A DNA stretch of 64,000 nucleotides from Gemmatimonadota bacterium (GTDB lineage: Bacteria; Gemmatimonadota; Gemmatimonadetes; Palauibacterales; Palauibacteraceae). Under the pieces are notes generated by a model. It made no database searches. It saw only the letters and a list, made by a program, of their open reading frames with translations, and was not told the origin of the DNA. A program made the translations under genes and the position numbers. Positions within the stretch are counted from its first letter, which is position 1; every line of letters begins with the position of its first letter. The DNA is taken from the NCBI GenBank assembly GCA_039587755.1, contig JBDHBD010000021.1, positions 8,027-72,026 of the forward strand, in the 5' to 3' direction. This document shows positions 3,646-23,721 of this stretch, one piece after another.

Positions 3646-3661
3646 CGTTGCGCGTCTCGCG

Positions 3662-6595: not shown

Positions 6596-6653
6596 CGACG
6601 CGCCATCGCGAATCTCCTATGTGAACGCCTGCGGCTGGCTCGCAGCCTGCCCA

Positions 6654-8273
6654 TCATGCCAACGGCACCGATTGCCCTGCCTGCACGTACGCGTGCTCGA
6701 ACGCCAGCAGGCCGATGAGCGCCGCCGGGCCGGCCACGACCCCGATCCACGGTGCCGCCACGCCGACCAGCGTCAACACGATCCCGACCCAGAAGAAGCC
6801 GCGGTACCGGCCGCGAGTCATCTCGTGCGCCGCCAGGTGAGCGTGTGCCGTCGCGTGTGTGATGGTTGTCTCGCCCGCCACCATGAGGAGGTGGACGAGG
6901 CTCGCACCGGCAAGCAGCCACAGCAGTGGTGTGACTTCTGTCGGGTCGAGCCAGACGGCCACCGGCACCAGCGCGCCCGCTCCCGCCAGGACACCCTGAA
7001 CGAGCAGGTGGGGCGGAAGCAGCGGGTTTTGCCACAGATCGCGTGCTTTCGCCTGGGCGAACAGGTAGGCCGTATAGACCGCTGTGAGCGTGGCGAGCGG
7101 CAGCCCGGCGAACATGAGCCCCCACACCAGCTCGGCACGACCGAACAGGACGCCGAGCAAGTGGAGAGCCAGCACGATGCCGTATCCCCCTACGATGAAG
7201 GCGCCACGGACCAGCCAGCTCTCCCAGCGCCGCCTGGTGAAGATCATGTAGAACCGCTCGGGGTGCTCCAGATCCCAAATCAGCAAGCCACCAGTGAAGG
7301 CCAGGAAGGCGGCGCCGACCACCGGGACACCCCATCGCCAGACGGGGCTCTCCGCATTGATCCAGCCGGCCAAAAGGGCCAGTACGGCCACCAGATACGC
7401 GCCCGCCGCGACCCCCTTGGTCAGGGTGTAGAGGCTGACCCGCCAGTCCCAGGGCATCTTGTGGGGAACGTCGTAGGCCAGCACTGCCGCCGCGGCCGTG
7501 TTGGTGGGACTGACCGGGCCCGCATCGGCCACACGACCGGCCCCCGGCCGCTCGTTCTTGTCGCCGGCGTTCCGACCGTTGTCGGACCCGTGCCCGGGGT
7601 GACCGGAAACCACGTGGCGCAGACCAGTCGTCTGCTCGCTCCACATGAACAGATCGCCCGGCGGCCTGAGCGCCGCGATCGGGTTCAGCGTCGCCTCGTG
7701 CGCGCCCGTATAGAACAGCTTTGGATGCGTCTCCTTCTGGGAACGTCTGACCGAGACGGGCTGACGGTGCACGATACGCGACACCTCGGAGCCCGAATCT
7801 CCCAGATCGCCCACCAGGATCGCCTCCACGGGACACACAACGACGCACGCGGGCTCCAGGCCCATATCGATGCGGTGCGCGCAGAAGTTGCACTTCTCCG
7901 CCGAGTGGTCCTCCGGGTTGATGAAGATCGCGTCGTACGGACAGGCGGCGATGCACGCCTTGCAGCCGATGCAGATGGACTTGTCGAAGTCGACGATCCC
8001 GTCCGCCCGCCGGTACATGGCTCCGGTCGGACACGCGACCGCGCAGGGCGCGAGCTCGCACTGGTTGCAGCGTGTGACCTGGAAGGCACGGCGCGCCTCA
8101 GGGAACACGCCGATGTCCACGTACTTGACGTAGGTCCGGTTGACGGAGAGCGGGACTTCGTTCTCGGACTTGCAGGCGGTGCTACAGGCGTGGCACCCGA
8201 TGCACCGGGTATGATCGACGACCTTGGCCCAGCGCACGGGTGGGGCGCCGGCTTCGGCAGCGGTTGTCGCCAT
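6654..8273 (-). CDS. fused 4x[4Fe-4S] ferredoxin-like subunit + NrfD/PsrC-type integral membrane quinone-interacting subunit
   Basis: N-terminal ~200 aa carry four Cys clusters (CIGCHACSTAC, CNQCELAPCAVACP, CIGCKACIAACP, CNFCAHR…CVVVCP). C-terminal ~330 aa form ~8 predicted transmembrane helices. ATG at 8273 preceded by GGGAG. Confidence 0.75.
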   Translation of the reverse strand: MATTAAEAGAPPVRWAKVVDHTRCIGCHACSTACKSENEVPLSVNRTYVKYVDIGVFPEARRAFQVTRCNQCELAPCAVACPTGAMYRRADGIVDFDKSICIGCKACIAACPYDAIFINPEDHSAEKCNFCAHRIDMGLEPACVVVCPVEAILVGDLGDSGSEVSRIVHRQPVSVRRSQKETHPKLFYTGAHEATLNPIAALRPPGDLFMWSEQTTGLRHVVSGHPGHGSDNGRNAGDKNERPGAGRVADAGPVSPTNTAAAAVLAYDVPHKMPWDWRVSLYTLTKGVAAGAYLVAVLALLAGWINAESPVWRWGVPVVGAAFLAFTGGLLIWDLEHPERFYMIFTRRRWESWLVRGAFIVGGYGIVLALHLLGVLFGRAELVWGLMFAGLPLATLTAVYTAYLFAQAKARDLWQNPLLPPHLLVQGVLAGAGALVPVAVWLDPTEVTPLLWLLAGASLVHLLMVAGETTITHATAHAHLAAHEMTRGRYRGFFWVGIVLTLVGVAAPWIGVVAGPAALIGLLAFEHAYVQAGQSVPLA

Positions 8274-8337
8274 CAACGATTCTCCCGAGAACCGGGCGTC
8301 CCACCCGCGGGGTACGCCCGGTGGATGGCCGTCGAGC

Positions 8338-8916
8338 TTAGATGAAGAGCGACGACTTCGCCGTGAGAGCGCTACCCAGGAACGTGCCGACGCCGCCGTG
8401 CTCGATGTCGTCCATCAGCTCTTCGTCGCGGATCCCCATCACGTTCTGCGACATGTCGCACGCGATGAACGTGACGCCGAGATCGCGCGCTAGCTGCATC
8501 ATCTCCTCGAGCGACTGCACGTTCTCCTGCTTCATCATCGCCCGCAGCATCTTGGCTCCGACGCCGAAGTAGTTCATCCGCGACGCCGGCAAGCTCTTCG
8601 TGCTCCCGGGAGCCATAACCCCCATCATCTTCTGGAAAAACCGCTTGTCCGAGAGCACCGTGTCCTTCTTGAGCGCAGTCAGCCCCCAGAAGGTGAAGAA
8701 CATGTCCACCTTCTGCCCCATCGCGGCTGCCCCGGTGGCGAGCACGAAACTGGCTAGCACCCGGTCCAGGTCCCCGGAGAACACGACCATCGAGACTTTG
8801 TCCTCGGGTTGCGCCTCCTCGAGCTCGGAGATCCGGCTCTCGAGCGCGTCCAGCCGCTGGGCCAGGCCTGTTGTCTCCCCCGTGCCGAGTGTGGAAGCGA
8901 TGTTGTCGACTGGCAT
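8338..8916 (-). CDS. DsrE/DsrF-like (DsrE2/TusD-like) sulfur-relay family protein
   Basis: 193 aa from ATG 8916 (RBS GGGAGGAAAG). Sequence …MVVFSGDLDRVLASFVLATGAAAMGQKVDMFFTFWGL… resembles the DsrE/DsrF-like family. The N-terminal 48 codons of ORF 8338..9060 are rejected. Confidence 0.6.
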   Translation of the reverse strand: MPVDNIASTLGTGETTGLAQRLDALESRISELEEAQPEDKVSMVVFSGDLDRVLASFVLATGAAAMGQKVDMFFTFWGLTALKKDTVLSDKRFFQKMMGVMAPGSTKSLPASRMNYFGVGAKMLRAMMKQENVQSLEEMMQLARDLGVTFIACDMSQNVMGIRDEELMDDIEHGGVGTFLGSALTAKSSLFI

Positions 8917-8935
8917 GCCACTTTCCTCCCGCAGG

Positions 8936-9187
8936 TTATGCACCCTTCTTGACGTAGTGAATGTAGAGGTGGGTGCCGCTCTCGTCGACTGTCTCCTGGT
9001 CGAGCAACTCCATGTCCTTGGCCACCTTGGCCCACCCCTGGAAGTCCTTGATCGAGCCACGGTCCGTGGCTGTGATCTTGAGGATCTGGCCCGGATCGAG
9101 GGCCATGAGCTCCTTGCGCGCCATCACCACGGGCATGGGGCAGTTCATCCCACGCGCGTCCAGCTCTTTGTCGAAAGTCATCTCCAT
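8936..9187 (-). CDS. tusA: TusA-family sulfurtransferase
   Basis: 83 aa MEMTFDKELDARGMNCPMPVV… with the conserved CPxP active-site motif. RBS AAGGAG 8 nt upstream of ATG 9187; the larger ORF 8936..9571 is rejected. Confidence 0.75.
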   Translation of the reverse strand: MEMTFDKELDARGMNCPMPVVMARKELMALDPGQILKITATDRGSIKDFQGWAKVAKDMELLDQETVDESGTHLYIHYVKKGA

Positions 9188-9201
9188 CGTGTTCTCCTTG
9201 T

Positions 9202-10434
9202 CTACACTCTCGCCTCTGCCCCCGCGCCCACCAGCCCGTACGCCTGCGAGAGGGCACAGATGTTCTTTCCGAGCTCGAGCTCCGAGGCCTCGTCCTCGTC
9301 GGGCTCGAGCAGGCCGGCGTTCACCCGTTTGATTTCTACGTACTCGTCCGGGAATTTCGGCAAGCTCTCGAGGATGTACTGGACGAACGGCTCCTCGCCC
9401 TTGTGAACCATCTGCAAGCCGTCGTTGGTTTCCTTGAGCTCGCCCAGCGGGGCCGCGAACTGGCCCGCGTCGTTCGCTTCCGTGCGACCGCTGAAGTGAC
9501 CCGGCATGATCAGCGTCTCGTCCGGCAGCTCGAGCAAACGGGACAGCGACCGGTAGTGGATCGGCGCCCACGTCTCTCCCTTCCCTCCCAGGTCAGGTCG
9601 AGCGATGGAGCGGATGAAGATGGAGTCACCGGTGAACAGGAAGCGGTCGTCGAGATAGAAAACGATGTTCCCGAGTGTGTGCCCCGGGACGTGCATTGCC
9701 CTGATGGTCGCCCCTCCGACAGCGAGCTCCCAGCCCTCCTTCAGGAACTCGTAGTCCATCTCCGCCGGAAGCACGTCGAGCGGGTGGATCCCGTCGTACG
9801 GGTGCAGGAAGTACGGCACCTTCAGCCAATCCGCCAGTGTCCGACCGCCACTGATGTGGTCCGCGTGGCCATGCGTATCGAGCACGGCCGTGATCTCGAA
9901 ATTCTCGGCTTCCGCCAGCTCTGAGTACTGGTCGATGTGGCGCAACGGGTCGATCACCACGCCCCTACCGTCGCTCACCACGACGTGGCTCAGGCAGCCC
10001 CGGGCCAGCCGCTGGATCTGGTAAACGGCGAGCTTGTCCTCTTCGGCCACGGTGCGCAGCTCGTAATGGTTCCCCCACGCGAGCGTGCCGCCCCCAAGAT
10101 GACGTATGTCGTAGCCCAGCGGGCGAAGCGCGTCCACCACGAAATCGGACGTGTCGCCCTTCGCGCACACAGCCAGGATCGGCTCGTCTCTCGGCATCCC
10201 CTCCATCAAGCCGCGATCGTGGGCTTCCTTCACGGACTCTACGAAGTCGAAGCTCTCGCTGGACTCCAGCATCTCGAAGTAGGGAACGTTGATCGAGCGA
10301 AGCGGCTTTGTGCCCTCGACCGGTGCGGCCTCGGCCTCATCGCGGTTGCGGATGTCGAGGATGAAGATGTCCTCCCCGCTGTGGAGCGCGTTGTTCAGCC
10401 TCGCGACCGTCCATTCCCCAGTCGGCGCCGTCAT
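9202..10434 (-). CDS. rhodanese domain fused to MBL-fold metallo-hydrolase (persulfide dioxygenase-like)
   Basis: N-terminal ~100 aa rhodanese-like. C-terminal domain has the metallo-beta-lactamase HxHxDH motif (DTHGHADH) and later His/Asp ligands, an architecture like PDO-rhodanese fusions. RBS GAGAGG. Confidence 0.75.
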   Translation of the reverse strand: MTAPTGEWTVARLNNALHSGEDIFILDIRNRDEAEAAPVEGTKPLRSINVPYFEMLESSESFDFVESVKEAHDRGLMEGMPRDEPILAVCAKGDTSDFVVDALRPLGYDIRHLGGGTLAWGNHYELRTVAEEDKLAVYQIQRLARGCLSHVVVSDGRGVVIDPLRHIDQYSELAEAENFEITAVLDTHGHADHISGGRTLADWLKVPYFLHPYDGIHPLDVLPAEMDYEFLKEGWELAVGGATIRAMHVPGHTLGNIVFYLDDRFLFTGDSIFIRSIARPDLGGKGETWAPIHYRSLSRLLELPDETLIMPGHFSGRTEANDAGQFAAPLGELKETNDGLQMVHKGEEPFVQYILESLPKFPDEYVEIKRVNAGLLEPDEDEASELELGKNICALSQAYGLVGAGAEARV

Positions 10435-11339: not shown

Positions 11340-11996
11340 CTATCTCAGTTGAATTGAAACGCGGCGCGGCTGTCCGCGCTGCGGATCCGGGTTCCTGACA
11401 ATCACACGAAAGTCGGCGGGTCGCTTGTCGAGGTGCCCGGCCGCCGACTCGTCCCAGTTCATCGACATCGGGTTCTCACGCGAGCCGTAGAACAGGGGAC
11501 AATCGGCTCTCCAGCGCCGTGACCGCAGGCTGCCTCCCGATACCGGACGTACGTCCACCGCCTGGAACTGGTTTCCCTCCTCGTCCTCCACCCCGATACG
11601 CGGGTTGCAGATGGTGATCATGCCGTCGGTGCAGTTTTCGAGGAACTGGTCGAAGGTCGTGCGGTGCCGTTCCTCGTAATTGTGGAGCACCAGGTCGACA
11701 CGGATGGTCTTGACCCGGCTGCCTCCGCTGGTGGTACCCTGCGACGCCCCGCTCACCTCGAACGTCCACGGCCCCATCTCGATCGGTTGGCCCACGTCGT
11801 AGTCCTGCGTGCAACCTGCATACAGGAGGCCGAGAAGGACACCGGTTGCGACTCGTTGGACCGGGATCGTGGTCACGATCGTCGCTAGTCCAGTGACACG
11901 GCTGCGACCCGGAACCCGCCCTCCACCGGTTCTGGGTGCTCGATCTGTAGCACGAGCCCCTCGCTGTCTACCCACACTCGAAAGACCACCACCCAC
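11340..11996 (-). CDS. hypothetical lipoprotein (start probably GTG ~11876)
   Basis: Signal peptide plus lipobox LLYAGC, then soluble domain; no family recognised. Confidence 0.4.
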   Translation of the reverse strand: MGGGLSSVGRQRGARATDRAPRTGGGRVPGRSRVTGLATIVTTIPVQRVATGVLLGLLYAGCTQDYDVGQPIEMGPWTFEVSGASQGTTSGGSRVKTIRVDLVLHNYEERHRTTFDQFLENCTDGMITICNPRIGVEDEEGNQFQAVDVRPVSGGSLRSRRWRADCPLFYGSRENPMSMNWDESAAGHLDKRPADFRVIVRNPDPQRGQPRRVSIQLR

Positions 11997-12436
11997 TGGG
12001 AAGACAGGGACCGGCTCGGGCGAAGGTTGAACAGATCACTGGGCATCGCCTGCATACAGCTATATGCGTACCCCTCGGAGTCGACGATCCGCAAGCGATT
12101 GCAGAGTAACGAGTCAATGAGACTGCGGCGGGACGCGTCATCATAGTTATCCAGCCCCCGCCAGTGGACGAACACGGCCACCAGTTTCTCGCCCGCCTGC
12201 GCCTGACCGGAGAATGGGCGAGGCATCCGCTGCATCTCCTGCGATCTTCGGACCTCCAGGCTGAGAATCCCCAGCGGGATTCGCTCTCCGCGAGCGAACG
12301 AGGTGGCCGGCTCGGGTGGCGAGCCGCACGCGATCATGGACCCGCACAGAAGGCCGCCGGTCACCGCCAGGGTCTGTACGAGCCCGGCCTTGCCGGGCTT
12401 ACCGAATTCGGGCATACGCCTGCCTCGCATATGCAT
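11885..12436 (-). CDS. hypothetical lipoprotein
   Basis: Signal peptide plus lipobox (GGLLCGSMIAC) with probable start MPEFGK at 12415; same size class as its neighbours. Confidence 0.4.
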   Translation of the reverse strand: MHMRGRRMPEFGKPGKAGLVQTLAVTGGLLCGSMIACGSPPEPATSFARGERIPLGILSLEVRRSQEMQRMPRPFSGQAQAGEKLVAVFVHWRGLDNYDDASRRSLIDSLLCNRLRIVDSEGYAYSCMQAMPSDLFNLRPSRSLSSQWVVVFRVWVDSEGLVLQIEHPEPVEGGFRVAAVSLD

Positions 12437-12950
12437 GGTGCCGGGATCCCTCCTGGAGGTTGGCCCGGTTCGGACGGTTTACGGCGGACATGTACTGGGC
12501 GAAGGCGTTCCCGAGATGCAGGTTGAAAGCCCGCATCGAGCCGTCCGGCCAGCGCTCTATGTATGGGCCCGGGCTTTGGGCCCGAAGCTCTCTCCACGCG
12601 TCGGCCACGAAGCCCACGCGGTTCCGCAGGAGGCGAAGATGCCGATATGTCTTCCTGGCCTCGGGCCACACGAGCGAGTCCGCGCGGAGTACGACACGCT
12701 GCAGTTGGCGCTGCAGCGTGTCCAGGGCAGTCATCATCTCGCGGGCGCACGGCGCATACTCCTCGCGGGTGATGCCATACCGACGGTCTTCCAGCCCATC
12801 GCATGCCGTCGGCGCAGGGGGTTCACACGCAAGGCAGACCACAGCCAGGCCCACGAGGATAATTGCTCGGGGGAGGCTCGCGGGGCAGCCGGAACCGCAC
12901 CTATCTGAACTGATCATGTTCGCGACGTGCTCGCTCATGCCGTCTAGCAC
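12399..12950 (-). CDS. hypothetical lipoprotein
   Basis: Signal peptide …ILVGLAVVCLAC with probable start MISSDR ~12917; no family recognised. Confidence 0.35.
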   Translation of the reverse strand: MLDGMSEHVANMISSDRCGSGCPASLPRAIILVGLAVVCLACEPPAPTACDGLEDRRYGITREEYAPCAREMMTALDTLQRQLQRVVLRADSLVWPEARKTYRHLRLLRNRVGFVADAWRELRAQSPGPYIERWPDGSMRAFNLHLGNAFAQYMSAVNRPNRANLQEGSRHHAYARQAYARIR

Positions 12951-12980: not shown

Positions 12981-13925
12981 TTAGCCTTCGTGCGGGAAGC
13001 GCTCCGCCATCACCGCGAGTCGCTCGAACCGCTCGCGGCACACGCGAGTGGTCGTCTCCAGGTCGATCTCGTAGTCCTTGAAGCGCCGCTGACGCTTGAA
13101 GTATTCCGCCGGTGCCGTCCAGTCGGGCAGCACGTTCAGACGGTACGTCTTACCGTTCCACACCTCGTAGAGCGGGAACAGGCCACTCGACACGGCGATC
13201 CGGACGAGCCCTACCGAGTCGGCCGGCTCCGATTTCCACCCGGTCGGACAGGGTGAGTGCATCAGCAGGAAACGGGTTCCGGTGATAGAGAACGCGGTCT
13301 CCAGCTTGCGGCGGAAGTCCACCGGGTGGGCGATCGACAGGGTCGCCGCATACGGGATTCCGTGTGCCACCAGGATGGACATGATGTCCTTCTTGTCCTC
13401 CTTCTTCCCGGTCGGCGTGGTGGTGGTGCGCGCACCGGGCGGGGTGGCCGAGGAACGTTGGCCGCCCGTGTTCCCGTAGATCTCGTTATCGTAACAGATG
13501 TAGAGGATGTTGTCGTCGCGCTCGGCCGCCGCGGAGAGCGTGGCGATGCCGATGTCGTAGGTCCCGCCGTCACCCGCCCAGCAGATCACCTGGCCGCGCT
13601 CCTCGTTCAGGTCGCGGACACAGGCCAGCCCGGACGCCACGGCCGCCGCCGATGCGAAGGTCGTGTTCACCACGGGCGCACCGTAGCTGGTGGTGGGAAA
13701 CGCGCCGGCCGTCACCGCCCCGCAGCAGGCGGGGATCGCGAGGGTGCAGACCTCTCCCGCCTCCTCCAGCGCCCTGCCCAGCATGGTGAGCCCCACGCTC
13801 ATGCCGCACCCGCCGCAGTTCGTGTTGCCGGGGCGGAGCAGGCACTCCTCGGTGCACGGAATGGACGGAACTTCGCCCAGAGCACCCGGGCTCGGCGGTG
13901 TTCTCGTCGCTGTATCGGTCGTCAT
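12981..13925 (-). CDS. 2-oxoacid:ferredoxin oxidoreductase beta subunit (TPP-binding; Por/Vor/Kor type)
   Basis: TPP-binding GDGG…NEIYGNTGGQ motif and Cys ligands for the proximal [4Fe-4S]. ATG 13925 with GGAG RBS. Confidence 0.85.
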   Translation of the reverse strand: MTTDTATRTPPSPGALGEVPSIPCTEECLLRPGNTNCGGCGMSVGLTMLGRALEEAGEVCTLAIPACCGAVTAGAFPTTSYGAPVVNTTFASAAAVASGLACVRDLNEERGQVICWAGDGGTYDIGIATLSAAAERDDNILYICYDNEIYGNTGGQRSSATPPGARTTTTPTGKKEDKKDIMSILVAHGIPYAATLSIAHPVDFRRKLETAFSITGTRFLLMHSPCPTGWKSEPADSVGLVRIAVSSGLFPLYEVWNGKTYRLNVLPDWTAPAEYFKRQRRFKDYEIDLETTTRVCRERFERLAVMAERFPHEG

Positions 13926-13947
13926 GCCTCGCGCTCCTTGCTCCCCT

Positions 13948-15123
13948 TCAGGCGGCGATCCCCATCCACACGGGCCGGTCAGCACGTTCGCGAGTCGTAA
14001 GATCCGCCAGCACCTCCTCGATCATGGCGGGCGTCACGTCGCCTCCGCACAGACCGGTCAGGTAGTCCTGGATCAGCAGATCGCTTCGGGTCGCCTGGAA
14101 GGCGGCCCGGATGTCCTGCCAGAACACGCCGCCCATGCCCGCCGCGTAGTTGCGGTCCAGCACGCCGACCCTGCCGGCGGTACGGCACGCCTCGCGGAGC
14201 GCCTCCTCGGGGAAGGGACGGAACATCTTCAGCTTGATGAGCCCCACCTTTTCGCCCGCATCGCGGCGGGCCTGCACGACTTCGTGTGCCGTCGTGGCGA
14301 TGGAGCCGATCGCGACCAGGATCGTCTCCGCGTCTTTCGTGCCCAGGGTCTGCAGCGCGTCACCCGGGTCGCGGCCAAACATCTCCATGAACTCCGCTCG
14401 AGCCTCCTGGAGAACCGTCGGGACCCTTGACATCGCCTCGTCGATCTCGAGCCGCAGCGACGTGGCCACGTCGGGCCACATCAGACCGCCCAGCGTCTTG
14501 GGATCGTCGTGCCGCATCCGGTGCGGCAGGTCCAGATCCGGAAGGTAGCGGTCCGTCTGGCTCTGATCGGCCAGGTCCGTCTCACCCTGCGTGTGCGACA
14601 GGATGAAGGCGTCGAGCGACACGAGCGCCGGCAACAGGATCCGGTGATCCTCCGCGATGCGGAACGCGAGCAGCGTCGTGTCCATCACCTCCTGATTGCT
14701 CTCGCAGTAGAACTGGATCCAGGGAAAGTCCCGCAGCATCAGCGTGTCGCCGTGATCCGCCCAGATGTTCCAGGGAGGTCCGAGCGTGCGGTTCACCGTC
14801 GCCATCACGATCGGGAGCCGATAGTAGCCGGCTACCATGATGTTCTCGACCATGTAGGCGAGGCCGTTGGACGAGCTGGCGGTGAACGCGCGCGCGCCGG
14901 CGAGCGAAGCTCCGATCGACACTCCCATCGCGCTGTGCTCGCTCTCGACCGGCACGACCCGACACTTTGTGAACGGAAACTTCGCCACGTACTCGACGAT
15001 CTCCGTCTGTGGCGTGATCGGATAGATCCCGCACGCGGCACCCCGCGCTTCGCGGTTCGCTTCCGCCGCGACGCTCAGCGCGTGACCTGCGGCGTGATTC
15101 CCGGTGACGACTTCTACAGGCAT
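13948..15123 (-). CDS. 2-oxoacid:ferredoxin oxidoreductase alpha subunit
   Basis: Typical PorA/KorA N-terminus (…VVTGNHAAGHA…GIYPITPQTEIVEY…). Start ATG 15123 with GGAG RBS. Confidence 0.85.
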   Translation of the reverse strand: MPVEVVTGNHAAGHALSVAAEANREARGAACGIYPITPQTEIVEYVAKFPFTKCRVVPVESEHSAMGVSIGASLAGARAFTASSSNGLAYMVENIMVAGYYRLPIVMATVNRTLGPPWNIWADHGDTLMLRDFPWIQFYCESNQEVMDTTLLAFRIAEDHRILLPALVSLDAFILSHTQGETDLADQSQTDRYLPDLDLPHRMRHDDPKTLGGLMWPDVATSLRLEIDEAMSRVPTVLQEARAEFMEMFGRDPGDALQTLGTKDAETILVAIGSIATTAHEVVQARRDAGEKVGLIKLKMFRPFPEEALREACRTAGRVGVLDRNYAAGMGGVFWQDIRAAFQATRSDLLIQDYLTGLCGGDVTPAMIEEVLADLTTRERADRPVWMGIAA

Positions 15124-15171
15124 GGCGGCGGCTCCTGGCTCTCGTGGCGCTGGCTGGCCCTCAGACGGCAT

Positions 15172-17547
15172 TCAGAGATGACTCATGAAGATCACGTTGC
15201 GGGGGCACTCGGTGACACAGATCCCGCACCCCTTGCAGTACGCATAGTCGAACACCAGCTGGTGCCCGACCCGCTTGAGTACCCCCTCGGGGCAATAGGT
15301 GACACAGAGATCGCACTCGTTGCACACGCCGCACGACAGGCACCGCTTCGCCTCGCTCGGATCCGTCAAGCCCATGTGGATCTCGTCGAACGTGGACTGG
15401 CGGGTCGTCATGGGCAGGCTGGCGCCCTCCTGACCCGACTGACGCTCGAACAGGTGGAGCCGCATGGCGTCGGGGCGGATCACGTCGTCGTGCCAGACGT
15501 CCACGTCCCGCCGGTCCGCGGCGTGCTCGGTGATCTCCGTCCGCTCGCCGCTCAGCGCACCATGAATGTGGATTGCAGAGCGTCGTCCGCTCCCGATCGC
15601 GCCTGCCACCGTTCCGTCGTTGGTCGCTAGGTCGCCGATCGCGAACACGGGCGTCTCCAGCAGCCCGAGCAGCTCTTCCCCTTCCCTCACCTCGGTCCCC
15701 TCCGGGAATACGCTGAGGTCGGGAGATTGCCCGAGTGCGAGGATCACGCGGCTGCACTGCAGCTCGAAGTCCGACCCAGGAATCTCCACCGGGCGACGAC
15801 GGCTGGACTTGTCGGGTTCGCCGAGCTCCATGCGCCGGCAGGTGAGCCGATAGCCAGCGCCGTCGGGGCCCGCAGCGTGGGCCGAGGCGGCTTCCGACTC
15901 CGCGACTGTCCCCTCGGCTGCGGAACCGTCCGGCTGCAGCGAGATCGGTTGGACCAGATAATCGAGCTGCACTCCCTCCTCGAGTGCCTCGTCGATCTCC
16001 TCCGCGATGGCCGGCATTTCTTCCCGCGTGCGGCGGTACACGACGCGAGCGCTGTTCGCGCCGAGACGCAGCGAGGAGCGGGCGGCATCCATCGCCGTGT
16101 TCCCGCCACCCACCACGACCACATCCTCTCCGTCCACCCGAACGCGGCCGCGTCGCACCAGGTCGAGGAAGTCGATCCCCTGATCGACGGCTGGGGTGTC
16201 GCCGATCCCCAGCCGCAGTCCGCGCAGCTCCTGCAGGCCGGTCGCGACGAGCACGGCGTCGTGCTGGCCGGCCATCTCCATGAGCCCGCGCCGATCGATC
16301 GGATGCTCGGTGACGGCCTCCACCCCGAGCGCCAGGATGCGACCGATCTCGTGGTCCAGCACGTCCTCGGGCAGCCGAAAGCGTGGAATCCCCGAGCGAA
16401 GGAGCCCCCCCAGGTCAGCCGTCGATTCGTACACCGTGACCCGATAGCCATAACGAGCGAGATGGTAGGCGGCGGTCAGCCCGGCCGGCCCCGAGCCGAC
16501 GACCGCCACCCGCTCATCGTGAACCTCCACGGGGTTGAGCGCCGCGTTCCCGTTGTCGCCGGCGTAACGTTCCAGCTGCCGCACGTTGACCGCGCCGTCC
16601 AGATCGATCCGATTGCACGAAGCCATGCACGGGGCCGGGCACACCCGTCCGCACACAGCCGGGAACGGGCTGCTCTCCAGCAGGATCTCGAGCGCTCGGT
16701 CGGGGTCGTCGTGGGCCAGGGCGTGCAAGAACCCCTGCACGTCGTTCCCGGCCGGGCAGACATGGTTGCAGGGAGGGATGTACTGCTGTCGGTGCGGCTG
16801 CTCCGTAGCCCACTGTCCCGTCTCGATCCCCGGCAGGTCGCCACCCGCCCCTTCGAGAAAGCTCGGTCCCCGTGGAACGATCGTGTACGGGGCGGCCGTT
16901 TCCGCCGACTCCTCTTGGATTCCCGCCTCTTCCGCCCCTTCCGGCACTGCTCCCCCTGGCGCGGTCGCTTCCTCCAGGCCGACGCCGGCGTCGGCCGCGG
17001 CATCTCCGGCAAGGCGCAGCGCCTCGTGCGCCTGGCTCGCCGCCGCGATGTTCGGCCCCACGAAACCCAGGTGCTCGAGAGCGTCGTGAATCTCCGTTAG
17101 CTCGAAGCCGAGCAGCCGCGCGGCGGCCCCGGCGAGCGCCGTGTTGACAATCGGCACACTTCGGGTGCCCAGCTTGTTGGCGCGGGCGATAGCGGTGGCG
17201 TCCACCGTCGCGACGGGATTGTCCGGAAACTGCTCCGCCAGATCCTGCGGCTCCTTCGTGGTGTTGATCAGGATCCAGCCGCCGGGCTTCAGGCCACCCG
17301 TGATGGCGGATCCGACCAGGGTCGGATCGAGGACGATGATGTGGTCGGGCGAGTAGATCAGGTTTCGGTTGGCGATCGGCTCGTCATCGTAGCGACAGAA
17401 GGCCTGGATGGGCGCCCCTGATCGCTCCGCGGCGTACAGACCGAAGGCCTGCACCGACTGGCCGAGCAGGAAACGGGAGGTGGCGATGATCTTGGCCAGG
17501 GTCACACCACCCTGACCGCCTCTCCCATGAATGCGGATCTCGACCAT
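15172..17547 (-). CDS. fusion protein: OFOR gamma subunit - GltD/NfnB-like NAD(P)H-dependent FAD/[FeS] oxidoreductase - OFOR delta (2x[4Fe-4S] ferredoxin) subunit
   Basis: Residues 1-~185 PorG-like. Residues ~250-690 carry GltD-type Cys clusters (CNHVCPAGNDV…CGRVCPAPCMASC) and two Rossmann GxGxxG motifs (VVGSGPAGLTAA; VVVGGGNTAMDAA). Residues ~700-791 have two CxxCxxCxxxCP motifs typical of PorD. RBS GAGGAG. Confidence 0.8.
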   Translation of the reverse strand: MVEIRIHGRGGQGGVTLAKIIATSRFLLGQSVQAFGLYAAERSGAPIQAFCRYDDEPIANRNLIYSPDHIIVLDPTLVGSAITGGLKPGGWILINTTKEPQDLAEQFPDNPVATVDATAIARANKLGTRSVPIVNTALAGAAARLLGFELTEIHDALEHLGFVGPNIAAASQAHEALRLAGDAAADAGVGLEEATAPGGAVPEGAEEAGIQEESAETAAPYTIVPRGPSFLEGAGGDLPGIETGQWATEQPHRQQYIPPCNHVCPAGNDVQGFLHALAHDDPDRALEILLESSPFPAVCGRVCPAPCMASCNRIDLDGAVNVRQLERYAGDNGNAALNPVEVHDERVAVVGSGPAGLTAAYHLARYGYRVTVYESTADLGGLLRSGIPRFRLPEDVLDHEIGRILALGVEAVTEHPIDRRGLMEMAGQHDAVLVATGLQELRGLRLGIGDTPAVDQGIDFLDLVRRGRVRVDGEDVVVVGGGNTAMDAARSSLRLGANSARVVYRRTREEMPAIAEEIDEALEEGVQLDYLVQPISLQPDGSAAEGTVAESEAASAHAAGPDGAGYRLTCRRMELGEPDKSSRRRPVEIPGSDFELQCSRVILALGQSPDLSVFPEGTEVREGEELLGLLETPVFAIGDLATNDGTVAGAIGSGRRSAIHIHGALSGERTEITEHAADRRDVDVWHDDVIRPDAMRLHLFERQSGQEGASLPMTTRQSTFDEIHMGLTDPSEAKRCLSCGVCNECDLCVTYCPEGVLKRVGHQLVFDYAYCKGCGICVTECPRNVIFMSHL

Positions 17548-17918
17548 CCCGTTCTCCTCGCCCGGTTTGCCGGCGTTTGGCCGTGTCTCGAAGGGTAAAC
17601 ATAGGGCACGATCGGGACCACGGCGCGGTACGGCGCAGAACGCGAGTTGAAGCGGCCGTTAGCCTATACAAATAAACAACTTACGAGGCCTCTGCGAACC
17701 ATCGATGCGGCCTGTGGACCCATGGGTTGGGGTAGAATGACACAGAGTAAGCGGCTCGCTGGGACACTCAGGCGATGGCTGGTGCTCCATCCCCCGAGGC
17801 AGATCGTGAACCGGGGCGTTTTGTCTCGTTTCCACGCGCTTTCCACAGTTCCATGGCCGTTGCAGCCGCGTGGAACGGCGACGAGCGGGTCGGAAGGCCG
17901 GGCGCTACGTTGTCGCCC

Positions 17919-18878
17919 ATGGACTTTCTGGGAATGTGCTGGGACGCGGCCGAGAGAATCCGTGAGAGGGTGCGCGAGACCCCAGTCGAGCCGTCGCCCC
18001 TCCTCAGCGAGCGGACCGGCGCCCGAGTCCATCTCAAACTCGAGAACTACCAGCTCACGGGCTCCTTCAAGCTGCGGGGAGCGATGAACGCGATGTGGTC
18101 TCTCGATGAGCCGAGCCGGGCCCGCGGCGTGGTGGCCGCCTCGTCGGGGAATCACGGCGCGGCCGTCGCCTGCGCGGCGCGCTCGGCGGGTTGCCCCACC
18201 CGCGTCTTCGTACCCGAGGGCTCGGCCCCCTCGAAGCTGGAGGCGATTGGCGCGTACGGCGCGGAGATTCGCGTCGTGGGGGAGGATTGCCTGCTAGCGG
18301 AGCAGGCCGCGCGTCAACACGCGACGGAGCACGCGATGGCGTACCTGTCCCCGTACAACGACGAACGGGTGGTGGCCGGTCAGGGCACGATCGGGGTGGA
18401 GCTGGAGAGCCAGCTCCCGCGCATCGATGCCGTGTGCGCCTCAATGGGGGGTGGAGGACTCATCTCCGGGATCGGCGGCTATCTGAAGTCGCTGCGGCCC
18501 GAGACGGAAGTGCTGGCGTGCTCTCCTGCCAATTCCTGTGTGATGCATGCCTCGCTCGAGGCGGGGTGCATCCTGGAACTCCCGTCGGAGCCCACCCTGT
18601 CGGACGGAACGGCGGGCGGGGTCGAAGCGGACTCGATCACCTTCGAGCTGTGCCGTGAGATCATCGACCAGTCCCTCCTCGTCTCGGAGGAGGAGATCGC
18701 AGCCGCCATGCGGTTGGTGCTGCATCACCATCACATGCTCGTCGAGGGGGCGGCCGGGGTGGCAGTGGCCGGTTTCCTCAAGGCATCTGGCGAAGCGGAT
18801 CGGTGGCGCGACCGCGACGTGGTGATTGTGCTGTGCGGAGCCAACGTCGATCCCGACGTGCTGAAGGGGATTCTCTAA
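17919..18878 (+). CDS. PLP-dependent threonine/serine dehydratase (fold-type II)
   Basis: PLP-lysine motif …TGSFKLRGA… and a glycine-rich loop SSGNHG. Start uncertain: 17775, 17853 and 17919 are all in frame. Confidence 0.7.
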   Translation: MDFLGMCWDAAERIRERVRETPVEPSPLLSERTGARVHLKLENYQLTGSFKLRGAMNAMWSLDEPSRARGVVAASSGNHGAAVACAARSAGCPTRVFVPEGSAPSKLEAIGAYGAEIRVVGEDCLLAEQAARQHATEHAMAYLSPYNDERVVAGQGTIGVELESQLPRIDAVCASMGGGGLISGIGGYLKSLRPETEVLACSPANSCVMHASLEAGCILELPSEPTLSDGTAGGVEADSITFELCREIIDQSLLVSEEEIAAAMRLVLHHHHMLVEGAAGVAVAGFLKASGEADRWRDRDVVIVLCGANVDPDVLKGIL

Positions 18879-18892
18879 GGCTGCGACGACGC

Positions 18893-21800
18893 CTACACGG
18901 GCACGAGTTCGGGTCGCGGCTCGCCCCCTCGCGGTTCGTCTCCTCGCGGCTCATCACCCCGCGGCTTCCCGGCCGGCGGCTCCCCCGGGAGTGCCTCGCC
19001 GGCCTCGCCTCCCGTCTCACCCGCTCCCACGCTCTCACCGAGCTCCTTGGGCTGGCGGCTGAAGTGACGCAGAAGGAAGGCCTCCAGATCGTCCAGTAGC
19101 GAGTGCATGACCGGCAGCAACACCAGCGTGAGGAAGGTCGCGAAGGCGAGGCCCGAGATGACCGCGATCGCCATCGGGCCCCACCAGGCCGCCTGCATCC
19201 CACCCCAGTAGAAATCGGGGTTCAGCCGCGTGTAGAAGCCGTTGAAATCGAAATTGAGCCCAATCGCCAGGGGCACGAGCCCCATGATCGTGGTGATCGC
19301 GGTGAGCGTGACCGGCCGATAACGGGTCAGGCCTCCACGCACCAGCGACTCGCGGGCCTCGATGCCATCGCGTTCCCTCAGCACGTGGATATAGTCCACA
19401 AGCACGATGGCGTTGTTGACCACCACGCCGGCCAGGCTGATCACCCCTACCCCACTCATGATCACCCCGAAAGGCATGCGGAACAGCAGCAACCCGAGCA
19501 AGACACCGATCGTCGAGAGGAGCACCGTGCTCAGGATGAGCACGGGCTTGAGCACAGAATCGAACTGGGAGACGAGGATGAAGCCGATCAGGAAGACGGC
19601 CATCAGGAACGCGCCGAACAGGAAGTCCTGCGACTCCTGCTGCTCCTCCTGTTCGCCCGTGTACTCCATCCGGTAGCCGGCCGGAAGCATTTCGGCGAAG
19701 CCGGCCAGCACCTGCTTTACCTCGGCAAGCACCGCGTTCGCGTTGTAGGACGCGCGCACATCCGACGAGACGGTGGCCATCCGCTTCAGGTCCTTGCGGT
19801 TCACACCGCTGAACCCCTCGTCGACCCTCCAGGTCGCCACCGAGGAAAGGGGCACCTGGTTCTCGAACTCGTTCGTGACCGTGAGATCCGCCAGCGCGCT
19901 CAGATCGCGCCGGTAGCGCTCAGCCAGCCGGACGACGATATCGTATTCCTCCTCGCCCTCCCTGTATTCCGACGCTTCCGTCCCGTTGATCGCGCTGCGC
20001 ACCGTGAAGCCGATGTCCATGGTGCTCAGGTCGAACAGAGCGGCCTTCTCACGATCGACCTCCACCCGCAGCTCGGGACGCGCATCGGCGAGATCGCTCT
20101 CCAGACCATCCAGCTTGACGGCCACCGGCGAGTTCGAGATCACGTCGATCGCCTCATCGGACAGCCTCTGAAGCGTCTCGGCGGCCTCACCCGAGATCTC
20201 GATGTTCACCGGTAGCCCGGTGGGCGGACCCATCGAGGGCTGCTGTACCGTGAACGTGGCCCCCGCCACGTCCCGACCGACTCGGGCTCGCATCCGCTCT
20301 ACGGTCGCGATCCCGTCGGACTCCCGGTCCTGGTAGTCCACGAAAGTGACCGCCACCGTCGCTAGATGGCTCCCGGACTGGCCCTCTCCGAACACTCCAG
20401 CGCTCGAGCCCGTGGTCGCCACGACGGATTCAAAGTCCTCGCGGCCCCCGATGATCCGCAGCTCTTCTTCGACCTCACGCACGATGCGGTCGGTGACATC
20501 GACCCGGGTCCCCGTCGGGGTCTCGATCTGGACCCATACCGTCTCGGGTGGTACGTCCTCGGGGAAGAACTCGATTCCGGCGTTGAGGGCGCCGAACGCC
20601 GCCAGAGAGAATACGAGCAGGGCCGCCACTCCGCCCATCACTCGCCCACGGTGCTGGATGCACCAGCGGAGGGACCGCTCGTACAGCCGCAGCGTCGCGG
20701 GAAGGCTCGTGTGTTGGAACCAGTGCGCGATCGGCACGAGCACCTGCCGGTGCAGATAGAACAACCCGACGCCGGTGAGCGTCAGGAGAACGGCGGCCAC
20801 AGGCTCCCGCACCAGTAAGACCAGGAACAGCACGCCGGCCACGCCCCCCAGAGCCATCTTGGTCTCACGCGTGAAGACCATGCGCGGCTCGCCCTCGGTG
20901 CGCATGAACAGAGACGTGAGGGTCGGGTTGATGACCAGCGCCACGAACAGTGAGGAGCTGAGTGTGATGATGAGCGTCTTGGGCAGGTAGGCCATAAACT
21001 CGCCCGTGATCCCCGGCCACAGCAGCATGGGCGCGAAGGCGGCCAGCGTGGTGGCCGTCGCGGCGATCACGGGGGGCGCGACCTCGGCCGTTGCGAGCTT
21101 GGACGCCTCTTTCGCGCCAAAGCCCTCCTCGCGGAAGCGGAAGATGTTCTCGACGATCACGATAGCGTTGTCGACCAGCATCCCCAGCGCGAGGATCAGC
21201 GAGAACAGCACAACCATGTTCATCGTCATCCCGAACAGCTGGATGACGGCGAACGAGATCAGCATCGAGAGTGGAATCGCCACCCCCACGAACGAGGCGT
21301 TCGTGACCCCGAGCGCGAACAGGAGGACGGCCACCACCAGGATAAGGCCCGAGATGATGTTGTTCTCGAGGCTCCCCACCATCTGGCGGACGTACTCGGC
21401 CTGGTCGGATGTGATCTCGACGACAGTGGTGGGCGGAAAGATCGGCTGCATCTCTTCGATCACAGCCTTTACGCCGTCGGACGTCTCGATGATGTTCTCC
21501 CCCGTGCGCTTGCTCACGCTGAGGGTGACCACGGCGTTTCCGTTCAGGCGGGCGTAACTCTCGCGGTCCTTGAACCCGAAGTCGACCGTCGCCACGTCGC
21601 GCACGTAGACTGGTCGACCGCCGCGGACGGCAACCACGATGTCCTCGATCGGGCGGGTCTGCTCGAACTCGCCGGGGACGCGGACCAGGTACTTCACATC
21701 GCCGACGTCGATCGTGCCGCCGGGCACGGTGATGTTCTCCTCCGCGATCGCATCGATCACGTCGTCGAACGACACGTCGTAGAACTTGAGCCGCGCCAAG

Positions 21801-22426
21801 TCGACATCGACCTGCACTTCGCGCTCCAGACCACCCGAGAGCGTCACCTCCAGCACGCTCGGGATCTGCTCGATCTCGTCCTGGACGTCTTCGGCGAGCT
21901 GCTTCAGCCGCACGAGGCTGTACTCGCCGGACACGTTCACTTGCAGGATCGGGAACTCGGACAGGTTGAACTCAACCACGGCCGGCTCTTCCGCGGCCTC
22001 CGGGAGCTCCGGTTTCGCAATGTCCACCTTCTCGCGAACCAGCTGGAGCGCCTCCGTCATATCCATCCCGGCTTCGAATTCGACGGAGATTCTCGAGAAC
22101 CCCTCCATGGAGCTGGAGAGGATCTCCTTCACGTCGGCGATCCGGTTGAGCTCCTCCTCGATCGGCCGCGTGATGAGGGTCTCGATGTCCTCGGGGGCGA
22201 CACCCGAATACGCGGTGTTCACGGCTATGAACGGGACGGTGATGTCCGGCGAGGCCTCCTTGGGCACCTGGAGGTAGGAGATCAGCCCCCAGATGATGAC
22301 GATCGTCGTCATCACCAGGACGCTCGTCGGGTGGTCTACCGCGAAGGAGGTGAGCCAGAACTGGCGGTACTGCTTGCCCTCGGGATGCTTCTCGCCGCGT
22401 CCGTCGGAACCGCCGGGCTCGGTCAC
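18893..22426 (-). CDS. RND (AcrB/HAE1-type) efflux transporter permease with low-complexity C-terminal tail
   Basis: 1177 aa with 12 predicted TM helices and two large periplasmic loops, typical AcrB/CzcA architecture. The C-terminal ~60 aa are a Gly/Glu/Pro tail containing (PRGDE)n repeats. Confidence 0.9.
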   Translation of the reverse strand: MTEPGGSDGRGEKHPEGKQYRQFWLTSFAVDHPTSVLVMTTIVIIWGLISYLQVPKEASPDITVPFIAVNTAYSGVAPEDIETLITRPIEEELNRIADVKEILSSSMEGFSRISVEFEAGMDMTEALQLVREKVDIAKPELPEAAEEPAVVEFNLSEFPILQVNVSGEYSLVRLKQLAEDVQDEIEQIPSVLEVTLSGGLEREVQVDVDLARLKFYDVSFDDVIDAIAEENITVPGGTIDVGDVKYLVRVPGEFEQTRPIEDIVVAVRGGRPVYVRDVATVDFGFKDRESYARLNGNAVVTLSVSKRTGENIIETSDGVKAVIEEMQPIFPPTTVVEITSDQAEYVRQMVGSLENNIISGLILVVAVLLFALGVTNASFVGVAIPLSMLISFAVIQLFGMTMNMVVLFSLILALGMLVDNAIVIVENIFRFREEGFGAKEASKLATAEVAPPVIAATATTLAAFAPMLLWPGITGEFMAYLPKTLIITLSSSLFVALVINPTLTSLFMRTEGEPRMVFTRETKMALGGVAGVLFLVLLVREPVAAVLLTLTGVGLFYLHRQVLVPIAHWFQHTSLPATLRLYERSLRWCIQHRGRVMGGVAALLVFSLAAFGALNAGIEFFPEDVPPETVWVQIETPTGTRVDVTDRIVREVEEELRIIGGREDFESVVATTGSSAGVFGEGQSGSHLATVAVTFVDYQDRESDGIATVERMRARVGRDVAGATFTVQQPSMGPPTGLPVNIEISGEAAETLQRLSDEAIDVISNSPVAVKLDGLESDLADARPELRVEVDREKAALFDLSTMDIGFTVRSAINGTEASEYREGEEEYDIVVRLAERYRRDLSALADLTVTNEFENQVPLSSVATWRVDEGFSGVNRKDLKRMATVSSDVRASYNANAVLAEVKQVLAGFAEMLPAGYRMEYTGEQEEQQESQDFLFGAFLMAVFLIGFILVSQFDSVLKPVLILSTVLLSTIGVLLGLLLFRMPFGVIMSGVGVISLAGVVVNNAIVLVDYIHVLRERDGIEARESLVRGGLTRYRPVTLTAITTIMGLVPLAIGLNFDFNGFYTRLNPDFYWGGMQAAWWGPMAIAVISGLAFATFLTLVLLPVMHSLLDDLEAFLLRHFSRQPKELGESVGAGETGGEAGEALPGEPPAGKPRGDEPRGDEPRGGEPRPELVPV

Positions 22427-23643: not shown

Positions 23644-23654
23644 GGTTCACCCGT

Positions 23655-23717
23655 CTATACGTTCGCTATACGTCCGCTGTGCGTTTGTAATCCCCTGTGC
23701 GTTCGTAGATACGTTCA
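23655..23717. repeat. five tandem copies of an ~11-bp direct repeat TRTRCGTYYG in the tolC-MFP spacer
   Basis: tatacgttcgc / tatacgtccgc / tgtgcgtttgt / tgtgcgttcgt / agatacgttcac, read directly in the 78-bp intercistronic gap. Confidence 0.45.
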
Positions 23718-23721
23718 CGTA

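Follow-up and report, generated by a model that had tools for sequence, protein, structure and literature searches.

A putative 2-oxoacid:NADP+ oxidoreductase in which the gamma subunit is fused to a DsrL-2/NfnB-like flavoprotein with a delta-like C-terminal ferredoxin domain

Introduction

Pyruvate:NADP+ oxidoreductase (PNO) of Euglena and Cryptosporidium is a single-chain pyruvate:ferredoxin oxidoreductase (PFOR) fused to a cytochrome-P450-reductase-like FMN/FAD module, and the PadEFGHI (phenylglyoxylate:NAD+) and KorABC (2-oxoglutarate:NADP+) enzymes of Azoarcus/Aromatoleum are 2-oxoacid:ferredoxin oxidoreductases (OFORs) with an extra FAD subunit and direct reduction of NAD(P)+. Here, we describe a three-gene operon on the minus strand of a 64,000-nucleotide stretch of a Gemmatimonadota bacterium (contig JBDHBD010000021.1, positions 8,027 to 72,026; hereafter the window), in which one polypeptide combines an OFOR gamma domain, an iron-sulfur (FeS)-FAD-NADP(H) flavoprotein module and a delta-like 2x[4Fe-4S] domain, followed by the genes for the OFOR alpha subunit and then the beta subunit. 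The encoded complex is probably a CoA-dependent 2-oxoacid:NADP+ oxidoreductase with the electron outlet built in, working without free ferredoxin.

The predicted net reaction and the covalent joining of an OFOR to an NADP+-reducing flavoprotein are shared with PNO. However, the OFOR of the window is multi-subunit and its flavoprotein is an unrelated NfnB/DsrL-type FeS-FAD module, so that the NADP-handling parts are analogous and not homologous. The PadE, PadF, PadG and PadI profiles match the gamma, delta, alpha and beta parts weakly, whereas the flavoprotein of PadEFGHI and KorABC is a separate subunit and gene order and substrates differ. No PadH-type profile occurs among the best 25 of 30 matches of the flavoprotein segment, which suggests that it belongs to a different family from PadH.

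The alpha, beta, gamma and delta-like parts are homologous to those of PorABCD-type enzymes (PFOR, and the 2-oxoisovalerate enzyme VOR), as seen in matches to the Methanosarcina acetivorans PFOR structure (alpha to 9bt4_B, 6e-72; beta to 9bt4_C, 2e-52; gamma to 9bt4_E, 5e-31; delta-like domain to the PorD chain 9bt4_G, 6e-7). The thiamine pyrophosphate (TPP) motif and the cluster ligands are kept and gamma comes first in the operon. In PorABCD and VOR, however, delta is a free subunit of ~85 residues and the acceptor is ferredoxin, whereas here the delta-like domain is the C-terminus of a 550-residue NADP(H) flavoprotein fused to gamma, and the predicted acceptor is NADP+.

DsrL has been shown experimentally to be an NAD(P)H:acceptor oxidoreductase for a partner enzyme (PMC7596348). 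Loffler et al. (2020) define DsrL by the same four-part architecture as that of the flavoprotein described here, with an N-terminal 2x[4Fe-4S] domain and a linker of ~100 residues before the C-terminal one, and exclude genes linked to pyruvate or 2-oxoisovalerate oxidoreductases (POR/VOR) (PMC7596348). The class of the window protein has already been noticed by DsrL researchers and was set aside rather than studied; this exclusion criterion is the sole mention of OFOR-linked homologues that we found. Within the full-text literature covered, outside which lie subscription-only papers, we came across no OFOR with a subunit or fusion of the NfnB/DsrL type that had been studied biochemically or structurally. 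The closest relatives outside OFOR operons (~40% identity over residues 228-788) are from Chlorobium and Prosthecochloris, and at one locus (L030) the relative is encoded between dsrAB and dsrEFH-dsrM and is a bona fide DsrL. Over residues 241-791, the window protein shares with DsrL-2 the order of domains (FeS, FAD with embedded NAD(P), linker, 2x[4Fe-4S]), the Tyr-Arg-Arg (YRR) motif, the replacement of distal-cluster cysteines and the presumed service to a partner redox enzyme, but the partner of DsrL-2 is DsrAB, whereas here the protein is linked and fused to an OFOR and its C-terminal motif is of the PorD type. We rejected an identification as DsrL itself: the flavoprotein is fused to gamma with alpha and beta directly next to it, a linkage that the DsrL authors exclude, and no dsrAB is present in the window.

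NfnB-like proteins of the Cac_0764 type, which lack NfnA and Arg333, are plain ferredoxin:NADP+ reductases (PMC12221290). The window protein shares with NfnB and the Cac_0764 type the Fer4_20 domain, the Pyr_redox_2 domain, the proximal cluster ligands including a glutamate and the YRR NADP site, and with the Cac_0764 type the absence of NfnA and Arg333. It differs from both in its additional linker, tethered delta-like domain and gamma fusion and in lacking two distal-cluster cysteines; the Cac_0764 type stands alone and uses free ferredoxin, in place of which the window protein would draw electrons from its tethered FeS domain. Judged by sequence, the nearest characterised relative of the middle module is DsrL-2, and the module resembles the non-bifurcating NfnB-like ferredoxin:NADP+ reductases. 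What is new is a DsrL-2/NfnB-like FeS flavoprotein whose ferredoxin domain appears to replace delta and which is here fused to gamma, together with the breadth of this arrangement in environmental bacteria.

Domain architecture of the fusion protein

The fusion protein is encoded by a single uninterrupted open reading frame (ORF) of 791 codons (15172-17547, minus strand; features are listed in Table 1). A triple fusion of this length in an alpha/beta operon had been proposed by a sequence-only reading of the window; the continuous ORF and the recovery of all expected domains bear it out, and its domain boundaries (residues 1-185, ~250-690 and ~700-791) agree with the Pfam and NCBIfam scans. 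The same reading took the fusion for the third gene of the operon, which the minus-strand orientation corrects: it is the first (gamma-epsilon-delta, alpha, beta).

The gamma domain matches the Pfam POR (gamma) family at residues 10-172 (3e-26) and NCBIfam TIGR02175 (PorC_KorC) at residues 1-173 with 131.6 bits, above the curated gamma cutoff of 81.1. In an AlphaFold2 (AF2) model of the fusion built from a 26-sequence alignment (mean predicted local distance difference test score, pLDDT, 62; predicted template-modelling score, pTM, 0.43), this domain has pLDDT values of mostly 70-94, while residues 183-267, the region of linker 1, fall below 50. Across 127 fused homologues, on which the conservation of the cysteines, E326 and the FAD and NAD(P) motifs given below was computed, linker 1 varies in length between 38 and 75 residues, always in frame, and has 67 residues in the window protein. 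To judge by composition and variability, it is a long flexible Ala/Gly/Glu-rich tether between gamma and the flavoprotein.

The flavoprotein module contains the Pfam domains Fer4_20 (residues 258-333, 5e-18) and Pyr_redox_2 (residues 346-641, 5e-18), and residues 241-789 match the NCBIfam family PRK12771 (566 positions, 'NAD(P)-binding protein') in one stretch with 459 bits. The best matches of this part in the Protein Data Bank (PDB) are 9n5u_A, 9bov_A and 8oh5_C (StnC), at 1e-69 to 1e-76, followed by NfnB of Thermotoga maritima (4ylf_B, 2e-62 over residues 257-668), NfnI-B of Pyrococcus furiosus (5jca_L, 4e-55) and GltD (2vdc_G, 4e-46). Three motifs are invariant or nearly so: G351-S-G-P-A-G356 for FAD, G480-G-G-N-T-A485 for NAD(P), and Y504-R505-R506, which aligns with Y310-R311-R312 of NfnB. 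An absence of FAD/NAD(P) motifs on proper alignment would have spoken against the module; GSGPAG, GGGNTA and YRR are all there. In the structure of NfnB, YRR is the site that binds the 2'-phosphate, and among DsrL proteins the motif tells the NADP(H)-specific DsrL-2 from the NAD(H)-specific DsrL-1 (PMC7596348); the NADP(H) specificity of a YRR-bearing DsrL-2 was measured kinetically for the Desulfurella enzyme (PMC7596348). The presence of this motif predicts NADP(H) specificity for the fusion protein.

All 19 cysteines of the fusion are invariant, Cys781 nearly so (0.99). In the N-terminal FeS domain, C260, C264, C299, C303, C307, C311 and E326 are likewise invariant and align with C47, C51, C86, C90, C96, C100 and E117 of NfnB. 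By this correspondence, the proximal cluster is predicted to be intact, with C264, C303, C307 and E326 matching C51, C90, C96 and E117. Of the distal ligands, only C260 and C311 (NfnB C47 and C100) are kept; C39 and C42 of NfnB correspond to A247 and Q250, in a region that forms an invariant EQP motif in the fused clade. At the same two positions, unfused OFOR-linked proteins have arginine and DsrL has Ser/Cys or Ser/Arg. Arg333 (PfNfnI-B numbering), an NfnB-specific residue beside the FAD, aligns with an invariant isoleucine, Ile514.

The module had been described as a GltD/NfnB-like NAD(P)H module. The FeS-FAD-NADP(H) composition is upheld; neither family identity is. Scores against the GltD models are far below their cutoffs (TIGR01317, 156.6 against 447.7 bits; TIGR01318, 204 against 483 bits) and neither the operon nor the set of window proteins scanned contains a GltB-like gene. 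An assignment as NfnB proper fails on Ile514 and on the lack of NfnA: a gamma domain stands upstream in place of nfnA, then the divergent dehydratase gene, and no NfnA-type domains are found among the window proteins scanned.

Linker 2 is homologous to the linker of DsrL and StnC-type proteins, and the alignments to 9n5u_A, 9bov_A and 8oh5_C continue through it as far as residues 744-746. Its region contains the conserved residues R716, F720-D-E722, H724, G726 and E732-A733. In the NADP domain, residues 538-567 (nucleotides ~15847-15936) form an Ala/Ser/Gly/Glu-rich surface insertion, which is 7-42 residues long in the family (median 12) and about 29 in the window protein. This insertion and the long linker 1 account for a length of 791 residues as against the usual ~748.

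The C-terminal domain matches a Pfam 4Fe-4S dicluster at residues 742-786 and has ten cysteines (736, 739, 742, 745, 748, 752, 771, 774, 777 and 781), among them two full CxxCxxCxxxCP motifs. It carries the motif DYAYCKGCGICVTECPRN, a hallmark of PorD. When the last 92 residues were scanned alone, PRK12771 ranked first, followed almost only by OFOR delta families, in the order PorD_KorD, PorD_Arch, OOR delta, VorD and PadF. On the PorD_KorD model (TIGR02179), other OFOR-linked C-termini reach 60.1 (L027), 58.4 (L029), 59.4 (P0123) and 46.6 (P0166) bits, whereas DsrL and relatives without OFOR genes in the fetched flanks reach 28.0-31.5 bits, so that this domain is more like PorD in the OFOR-linked group. 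The second motif reads (D)Y(D)YCKGCGxC..ECPR(N) in OFOR-linked proteins and C(E/N)GC(H/K)xC...CPCGYI in DsrL; among the 150 best representatives at 50% identity, the PorD-type form is present in 88 and the DsrL-type form in one. No separate porD gene occurs in the operons of the fused or unfused loci examined. The C-terminal domain is therefore predicted to replace the delta subunit functionally, although its membership is borderline by the curated threshold alone.

Alpha and beta subunits

The alpha subunit contains both expected domains, POR_N (4e-57) and PFOR_II (2e-23), and the beta subunit matches TPP_enzyme_C (8e-22). The beta motifs CxxC, GDG...DNE.Y.NTG.Q and PCPTGW align with 9bt4_C, so that the TPP motif and the cysteines of the proximal cluster are kept. 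The best models are PorA for alpha, a VorB type for beta and PorG/PorC for gamma, and by family membership the enzyme is assigned to the pyruvate/2-oxoisovalerate (POR/VOR) type of 2-oxoacid oxidoreductases. Among the NCBIfam equivalogs that define substrate class (PorABC, VorABC, Pad and OOR), none scores above its cutoff. Pyruvate is taken as the default substrate; 2-oxobutyrate and branched-chain 2-oxoacids are also candidates. The divergently transcribed threonine/serine dehydratase gene, separated from the OFOR operon by 227 bp (PRK06815, 428.5 bits, cutoff 371), hints at a supply of 2-oxobutyrate or pyruvate to the OFOR, and is no more than a hint because the pairing is kept solely in the closest relatives (L001 and L160).

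Recurrence of the fusion

A word-indexed protein search returned at least 120 clusters at the 90% identity level with 96-100% query coverage, 67-88% identity and lengths of 725-817 residues; the named members are metagenome-assembled genomes (MAGs) of Gemmatimonadota and Gammaproteobacteria. No fewer than 26 GTDB species genomes from four phyla carry the fusion in full length, in every case with alpha and beta after it; the hosts belong to Gemmatimonadota, Gammaproteobacteria (Woeseiaceae/Chromatiales and others), Thermoanaerobaculia and Planctomycetota, and across these lineages the fused gene, alpha and beta are kept at 61-88% identity. Conserved-neighbour clustering of 24 loci found the three operon genes alone to be universal; the threonine/serine dehydratase gene and two hypothetical ORFs downstream of beta recur in the closest relatives only. 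Of the 150 best representatives from an exhaustive HMMER search of a 50%-identity library, 27 contain gamma, and about 20 of these are full-length (710-785 residues, 35-51% identity). On a near-identical contig from another assembly, the ORF differs by one substitution, G190A, which falls in the linker. Public annotations of these proteins are generic ('2-oxoacid:acceptor oxidoreductase gamma subunit', 'FAD-dependent oxidoreductase').

In two long-read MAGs of Gammaproteobacteria (L024, 6001-8249; L026, 6001-8248), the fused gene appears in pieces, as overlapping ORFs or tblastn segments whose frames differ. The breaks most likely reflect homopolymer or indel errors of assembly and not real pseudogenes.

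Unfused relatives and origin

Two MAGs, one of Anaerolineae (L027) and one of Calditrichaceae (L029), have a gamma subunit that stops after 183 residues and is followed by a separate gene for a flavoprotein with a C-terminal dicluster and then by alpha and beta. Stand-alone flavoprotein-delta proteins of this kind are about 550-600 residues in length and PRK12771-like or DsrL-like. We scanned metagenome contigs with an alignment of them (loci L080-L159). Of the 48 metagenome loci whose flavoprotein has a complete PorD-like C-terminus, 43 have adjoining alpha and beta genes; of the five exceptions, at least two (L121 and L155) have the flavoprotein gene right at the beginning of the fetched sequence, and L095 is short as a contig. 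The order is gamma-epsilon/delta-alpha-beta in 19 loci and gamma-alpha-beta-epsilon/delta in 21, and one further gamma fusion (L087) was found among the loci scanned. The existence of two alternative gene orders suggests that the partnership was assembled twice or rearranged.

Since distant relatives have a separate gamma and stand-alone flavoprotein-delta genes, the basic unit would be an OFOR whose delta is the C-terminus of an NfnB-like flavoprotein, and the window would show a secondary fusion of this protein to gamma. The gamma and delta subunits had been pictured as sandwiching a GltD module; this describes the order of the parts correctly, while as a history of insertion it is probably wrong, as unfused relatives keep the flavoprotein and delta together. 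We also considered loss of a stop codon as the route of fusion. In L027 and L029 the two genes are in the same frame and separated by a single stop, but the arrangement is not general: among the 19 metagenome loci with this gene order, a shared frame occurs in three and a single stop in none, and the single-stop arrangement in L027 and L029 is probably a coincidence.

The ferredoxin domains at the C-termini of DsrL proteins (L030, 7435-7641; L039; L049) have OFOR delta profiles among their best matches other than PRK12771. These matches (28-32 bits) hint that DsrL and the OFOR-linked flavoprotein-delta proteins may share an origin involving PorD.

Functional implications

In the mechanism that we propose, TPP and the proximal [4Fe-4S] cluster would sit in a catalytic core made of alpha and beta, and the third polypeptide would supply the gamma domain with a tethered DsrL-2/NfnB-like flavoprotein, the 2x[4Fe-4S] domain of which would stand in for the missing delta. 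Electrons would start from the 2-oxoacid and pass by way of a hydroxyalkyl-TPP radical to the beta cluster and the two delta-like clusters, and from there through the N-terminal cluster(s) to FAD, ending as a hydride on NADP+. The net reaction would be 2-oxoacid + CoA + NADP+ -> acyl-CoA + CO2 + NADPH, which for pyruvate would be strongly exergonic (about -35 kJ/mol from standard potentials). The sequences show which domains are present, how motifs are conserved, how the genes are linked and how widely they occur; the order of the clusters, the docking of the C-terminal domain on beta, the NADP(H) specificity, the direction and the substrate are all inferred.

In favour of this mechanism, the three closely spaced genes provide every one of the four OFOR functions as well as an NADP(H) flavoprotein. 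The earlier suggestion of a direct transfer of electrons from the 2-oxoacid to NAD(P)+ without free ferredoxin, in an analogue of PNO, fits all of the sequence evidence gathered. Several points weigh on the other side. The distal N-terminal cluster, with two cysteine ligands only, may be atypical or absent. The AF2 model has pLDDT values below 50 in both linkers, the FeS regions and residues 671-791, so that distances between clusters are not readable from it. Against TIGR02179 (PorD_KorD) the C-terminal domain scores 53.6 bits, just below the curated cutoff of 60.05. Alpha, beta and gamma are all below the PorABC/VorABC equivalog cutoffs (PorA_Arch 368 against 550, VorA 292 against 646, PRK11864 beta 304.5 against 405 and PorB 271 against 405 bits). 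Finally, energy is lost when electrons of ~-500 mV are delivered to NADP+, a cost that anaerobes would usually not accept; this objection is weaker for facultative or aerobic host lineages.

The flavin might instead be a site of bifurcation or confurcation, at which an FAD placed between two FeS branches couples the 2-oxoacid, NADP(H) and an external ferredoxin or flavodoxin. The homology of the module to NfnB, the bifurcating subunit of Nfn (2e-62), points in this direction, as do the best PDB matches, which are NfnB-like domains of multi-branch enzymes aligning through linker 2, and the two separate FeS domains that flank the flavin. If true, NADPH-assisted 2-oxoacid synthesis or energy-conserving reduction of ferredoxin would be possible. 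Nevertheless, no NfnA-like or other high-potential partner is found in the operon or among the conserved neighbours, the proposed stabiliser of the bifurcating semiquinone, Arg333, is replaced, the distal N-terminal cluster, which faces ferredoxin in Nfn, is short of two cysteine ligands, and the DsrL and Cac_0764-type relatives are plain NAD(P)H oxidoreductases (PMC7596348, PMC12221290). Because there is neither an NfnA partner nor Arg333, and such NfnB-like proteins are plain ferredoxin:NADP+ reductases, we regard bifurcation as unlikely. A joint proposal, that the OFOR-linked flavoprotein-delta protein is ancestral to DsrL or the reverse and that the flavin between two FeS branches makes this a new flavin-based bifurcating OFOR, is distinctly unlikely; 2-oxoacid oxidation could then, for instance, reduce NADP+ and a second external low-potential acceptor together, or aerobic or facultative sediment bacteria could use the enzyme to make 2-oxoacids reversibly with the help of NADPH.

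The length and flexibility of the tether, and the non-canonical distal ligands, which might limit electron throughput, would suit a maintenance or protective role, in which NADPH keeps the OFOR clusters in a reduced, active state, or returns them to it, in oxygen-exposed cells and free ferredoxin or flavodoxin is the real acceptor; the hosts (Gemmatimonadota, Woeseiaceae and Planctomycetota) are largely aerobic or facultative. Against such a role, the operon has no separate delta, leaving the C-terminal domain of the flavoprotein as the only exit from the beta cluster, and the strict conservation across phyla in two gene orders fits a stoichiometric catalytic subunit better. We consider it quite improbable.

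OFORs are reversible in principle, and the YRR-bearing DsrL-2 has been proposed to take NADPH as a donor on account of its lower potential in vivo (PMC7596348), so that the complex could be imagined to work in reverse, as a 2-oxoacid synthase that uses NADPH to carboxylate acyl-CoA reductively, whether for biosynthesis or to fix CO2. This is very improbable. By standard potentials, NADPH (about -320 to -370 mV) would need extra energy to drive the acetyl-CoA + CO2/pyruvate couple (about -500 mV), but no energy input is encoded in the operon and no genes of the reverse tricarboxylic acid (TCA) cycle are linked to it, and the nearby citrate synthase and threonine/serine dehydratase point to catabolic or oxidative metabolism.

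It is extremely improbable that the link to the OFOR is incidental and that the protein carries NAD(P)H electrons to or from the sulfur enzymes encoded a few kilobases downstream, as a DsrL would. Bona fide DsrL and residues 228-788 do share 40% identity, and genes for DsrE2-like, rhodanese-metallo-beta-lactamase, PsrBC-like and PhsA-like molybdoenzyme proteins lie at 3662-10434; however, the window has no dsrAB, the C-terminal motif is of the PorD and not of the DsrL type, the criteria of the DsrL authors exclude POR/VOR-linked genes and in other lineages the operon does not keep the sulfur genes as neighbours, whereas it always has alpha and beta. That separate genes for gamma, flavoprotein and delta were joined by an artefact of assembly or a frameshift has a negligible probability: relatives do have gamma and flavoprotein-delta as two genes, but the ORF, with its variable linker always in frame, is unbroken in over 120 clusters at 90% identity, in no fewer than 26 species genomes and in many metagenome assemblies made independently, which settles both the frameshift check and the search for the same fusion in other genomes that had been called for.

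If direct reduction of NADP+ by the complex is correct, many environmental bacteria, including Gemmatimonadota, Woeseiaceae and other Gammaproteobacteria, Planctomycetota, Acidobacteriota and many others with the unfused form, would have a 'PFOR' that makes NADPH directly. The task of the pyruvate dehydrogenase complex would then be performed by an oxygen-sensitive type of enzyme without a ferredoxin pool, and these genomes would be misjudged wherever an OFOR gene is taken to signal anaerobic metabolism based on ferredoxin or carbon fixation by the reverse TCA cycle. Chains of PFOR, ferredoxin and ferredoxin:NADP+ reductase have been assembled from separate parts by engineers for NADPH supply (PMC12221290), and the operon would be a natural, self-contained equivalent. 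It would also provide an evolutionary context for DsrL.

Operon layout and genomic context

The coordinates of the features are collected in Table 1.

Table 1. Features of the OFOR operon and its upstream flank (positions in the window)
Feature	Coordinates	Strand	Evidence
Gamma (PorC/PorG-like) domain, residues 1-180 of fusion	17008..17547	-	Pfam, NCBIfam and PDB matches
Linker 1, residues ~181-240, low-complexity Ala/Gly/Glu/Pro tether	16828..17007	-	Variable length, low conservation
N-terminal FeS domain (Fer4_20, NfnB/DPD type), residues ~241-335	16543..16827	-	Pfam, Cys conservation
FAD domain with embedded NADP(H) domain, residues ~336-668	15544..16542	-	Pyr_redox_2, motifs
Linker 2, residues ~669-730, into C-terminal cluster domain	15358..15543	-	DsrL/StnC alignments
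Delta-like 2x[4Fe-4S] ferredoxin domain, residues ~731-791, plus stop codon	15172..15357	-	Cys, profiles
OFOR alpha subunit, 407 residues from first ATG	13948..15171	-	POR_N, PFOR_II
OFOR beta subunit, TPP and proximal [4Fe-4S], 314 residues from ATG at 13925	12981..13925	-	TPP_enzyme_C
Divergent intergenic region, presumed operon promoter region	17548..17774	.	Lies between fusion and dehydratase genes
Threonine/serine dehydratase, divergently transcribed	17775..18878	+	PRK06815

A ribosome-binding site, GGAGAA, lies 6-11 nucleotides before the ATG of the fusion gene. The TGA stop codon of this gene is immediately followed by the alpha ORF, counted from its first in-frame ATG. On the near-identical contig, the gene caller places the start of alpha 16 codons later, and the true start is probably Met17 at nucleotide 15123, giving 391 residues. 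The gap between alpha and beta is 22 nucleotides, with a Shine-Dalgarno sequence, AAGGAG, 8-13 nucleotides upstream of the beta ATG. Beta is called as 273 residues on the related contig; such a start would remove the CGGC cluster ligands. In the promoter scan of the region upstream of the operon no sigma-70 consensus promoter was seen, and the terminator scan gave terminator-like matches at the level expected from shuffled sequence only. The tRNA and Rfam scans found no tRNA and no Rfam-recognised RNA in the window.

Directly downstream of beta are two ORFs of 183 residues each (12399-12950 and 11885-12436, minus strand) with no Pfam or NCBIfam match. Homologues are found at the equivalent place in L001 (with two copies of the first ORF), L021 and L160, and the two proteins may have an accessory role in the operon of this sub-clade.

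Further downstream lies a sulfur/molybdoenzyme cluster on the minus strand (2785-10434). It comprises a persulfide-dioxygenase-like fusion of a rhodanese and a metallo-beta-lactamase (9202-10434), a DsrE2-like protein (8338-9060), an unusual 540-residue fusion of a four-cluster FeS subunit (Fer4_11; TtrB/NrfC/DsrO-like) with an NrfD-type membrane anchor (6654-8276), a 977-residue molybdopterin oxidoreductase (3662-6595), for which the best match, PhsA at 200 bits, is far below the cutoff, and a TorD/NarJ-type chaperone (2785-3645). A citrate synthase is encoded at 1094-2644. On the upstream side, 18893-25197 (minus strand) encodes a complete resistance-nodulation-division (RND) efflux system, consisting of an AcrB-like pump of 1177 residues, a membrane-fusion protein and an outer-membrane factor.

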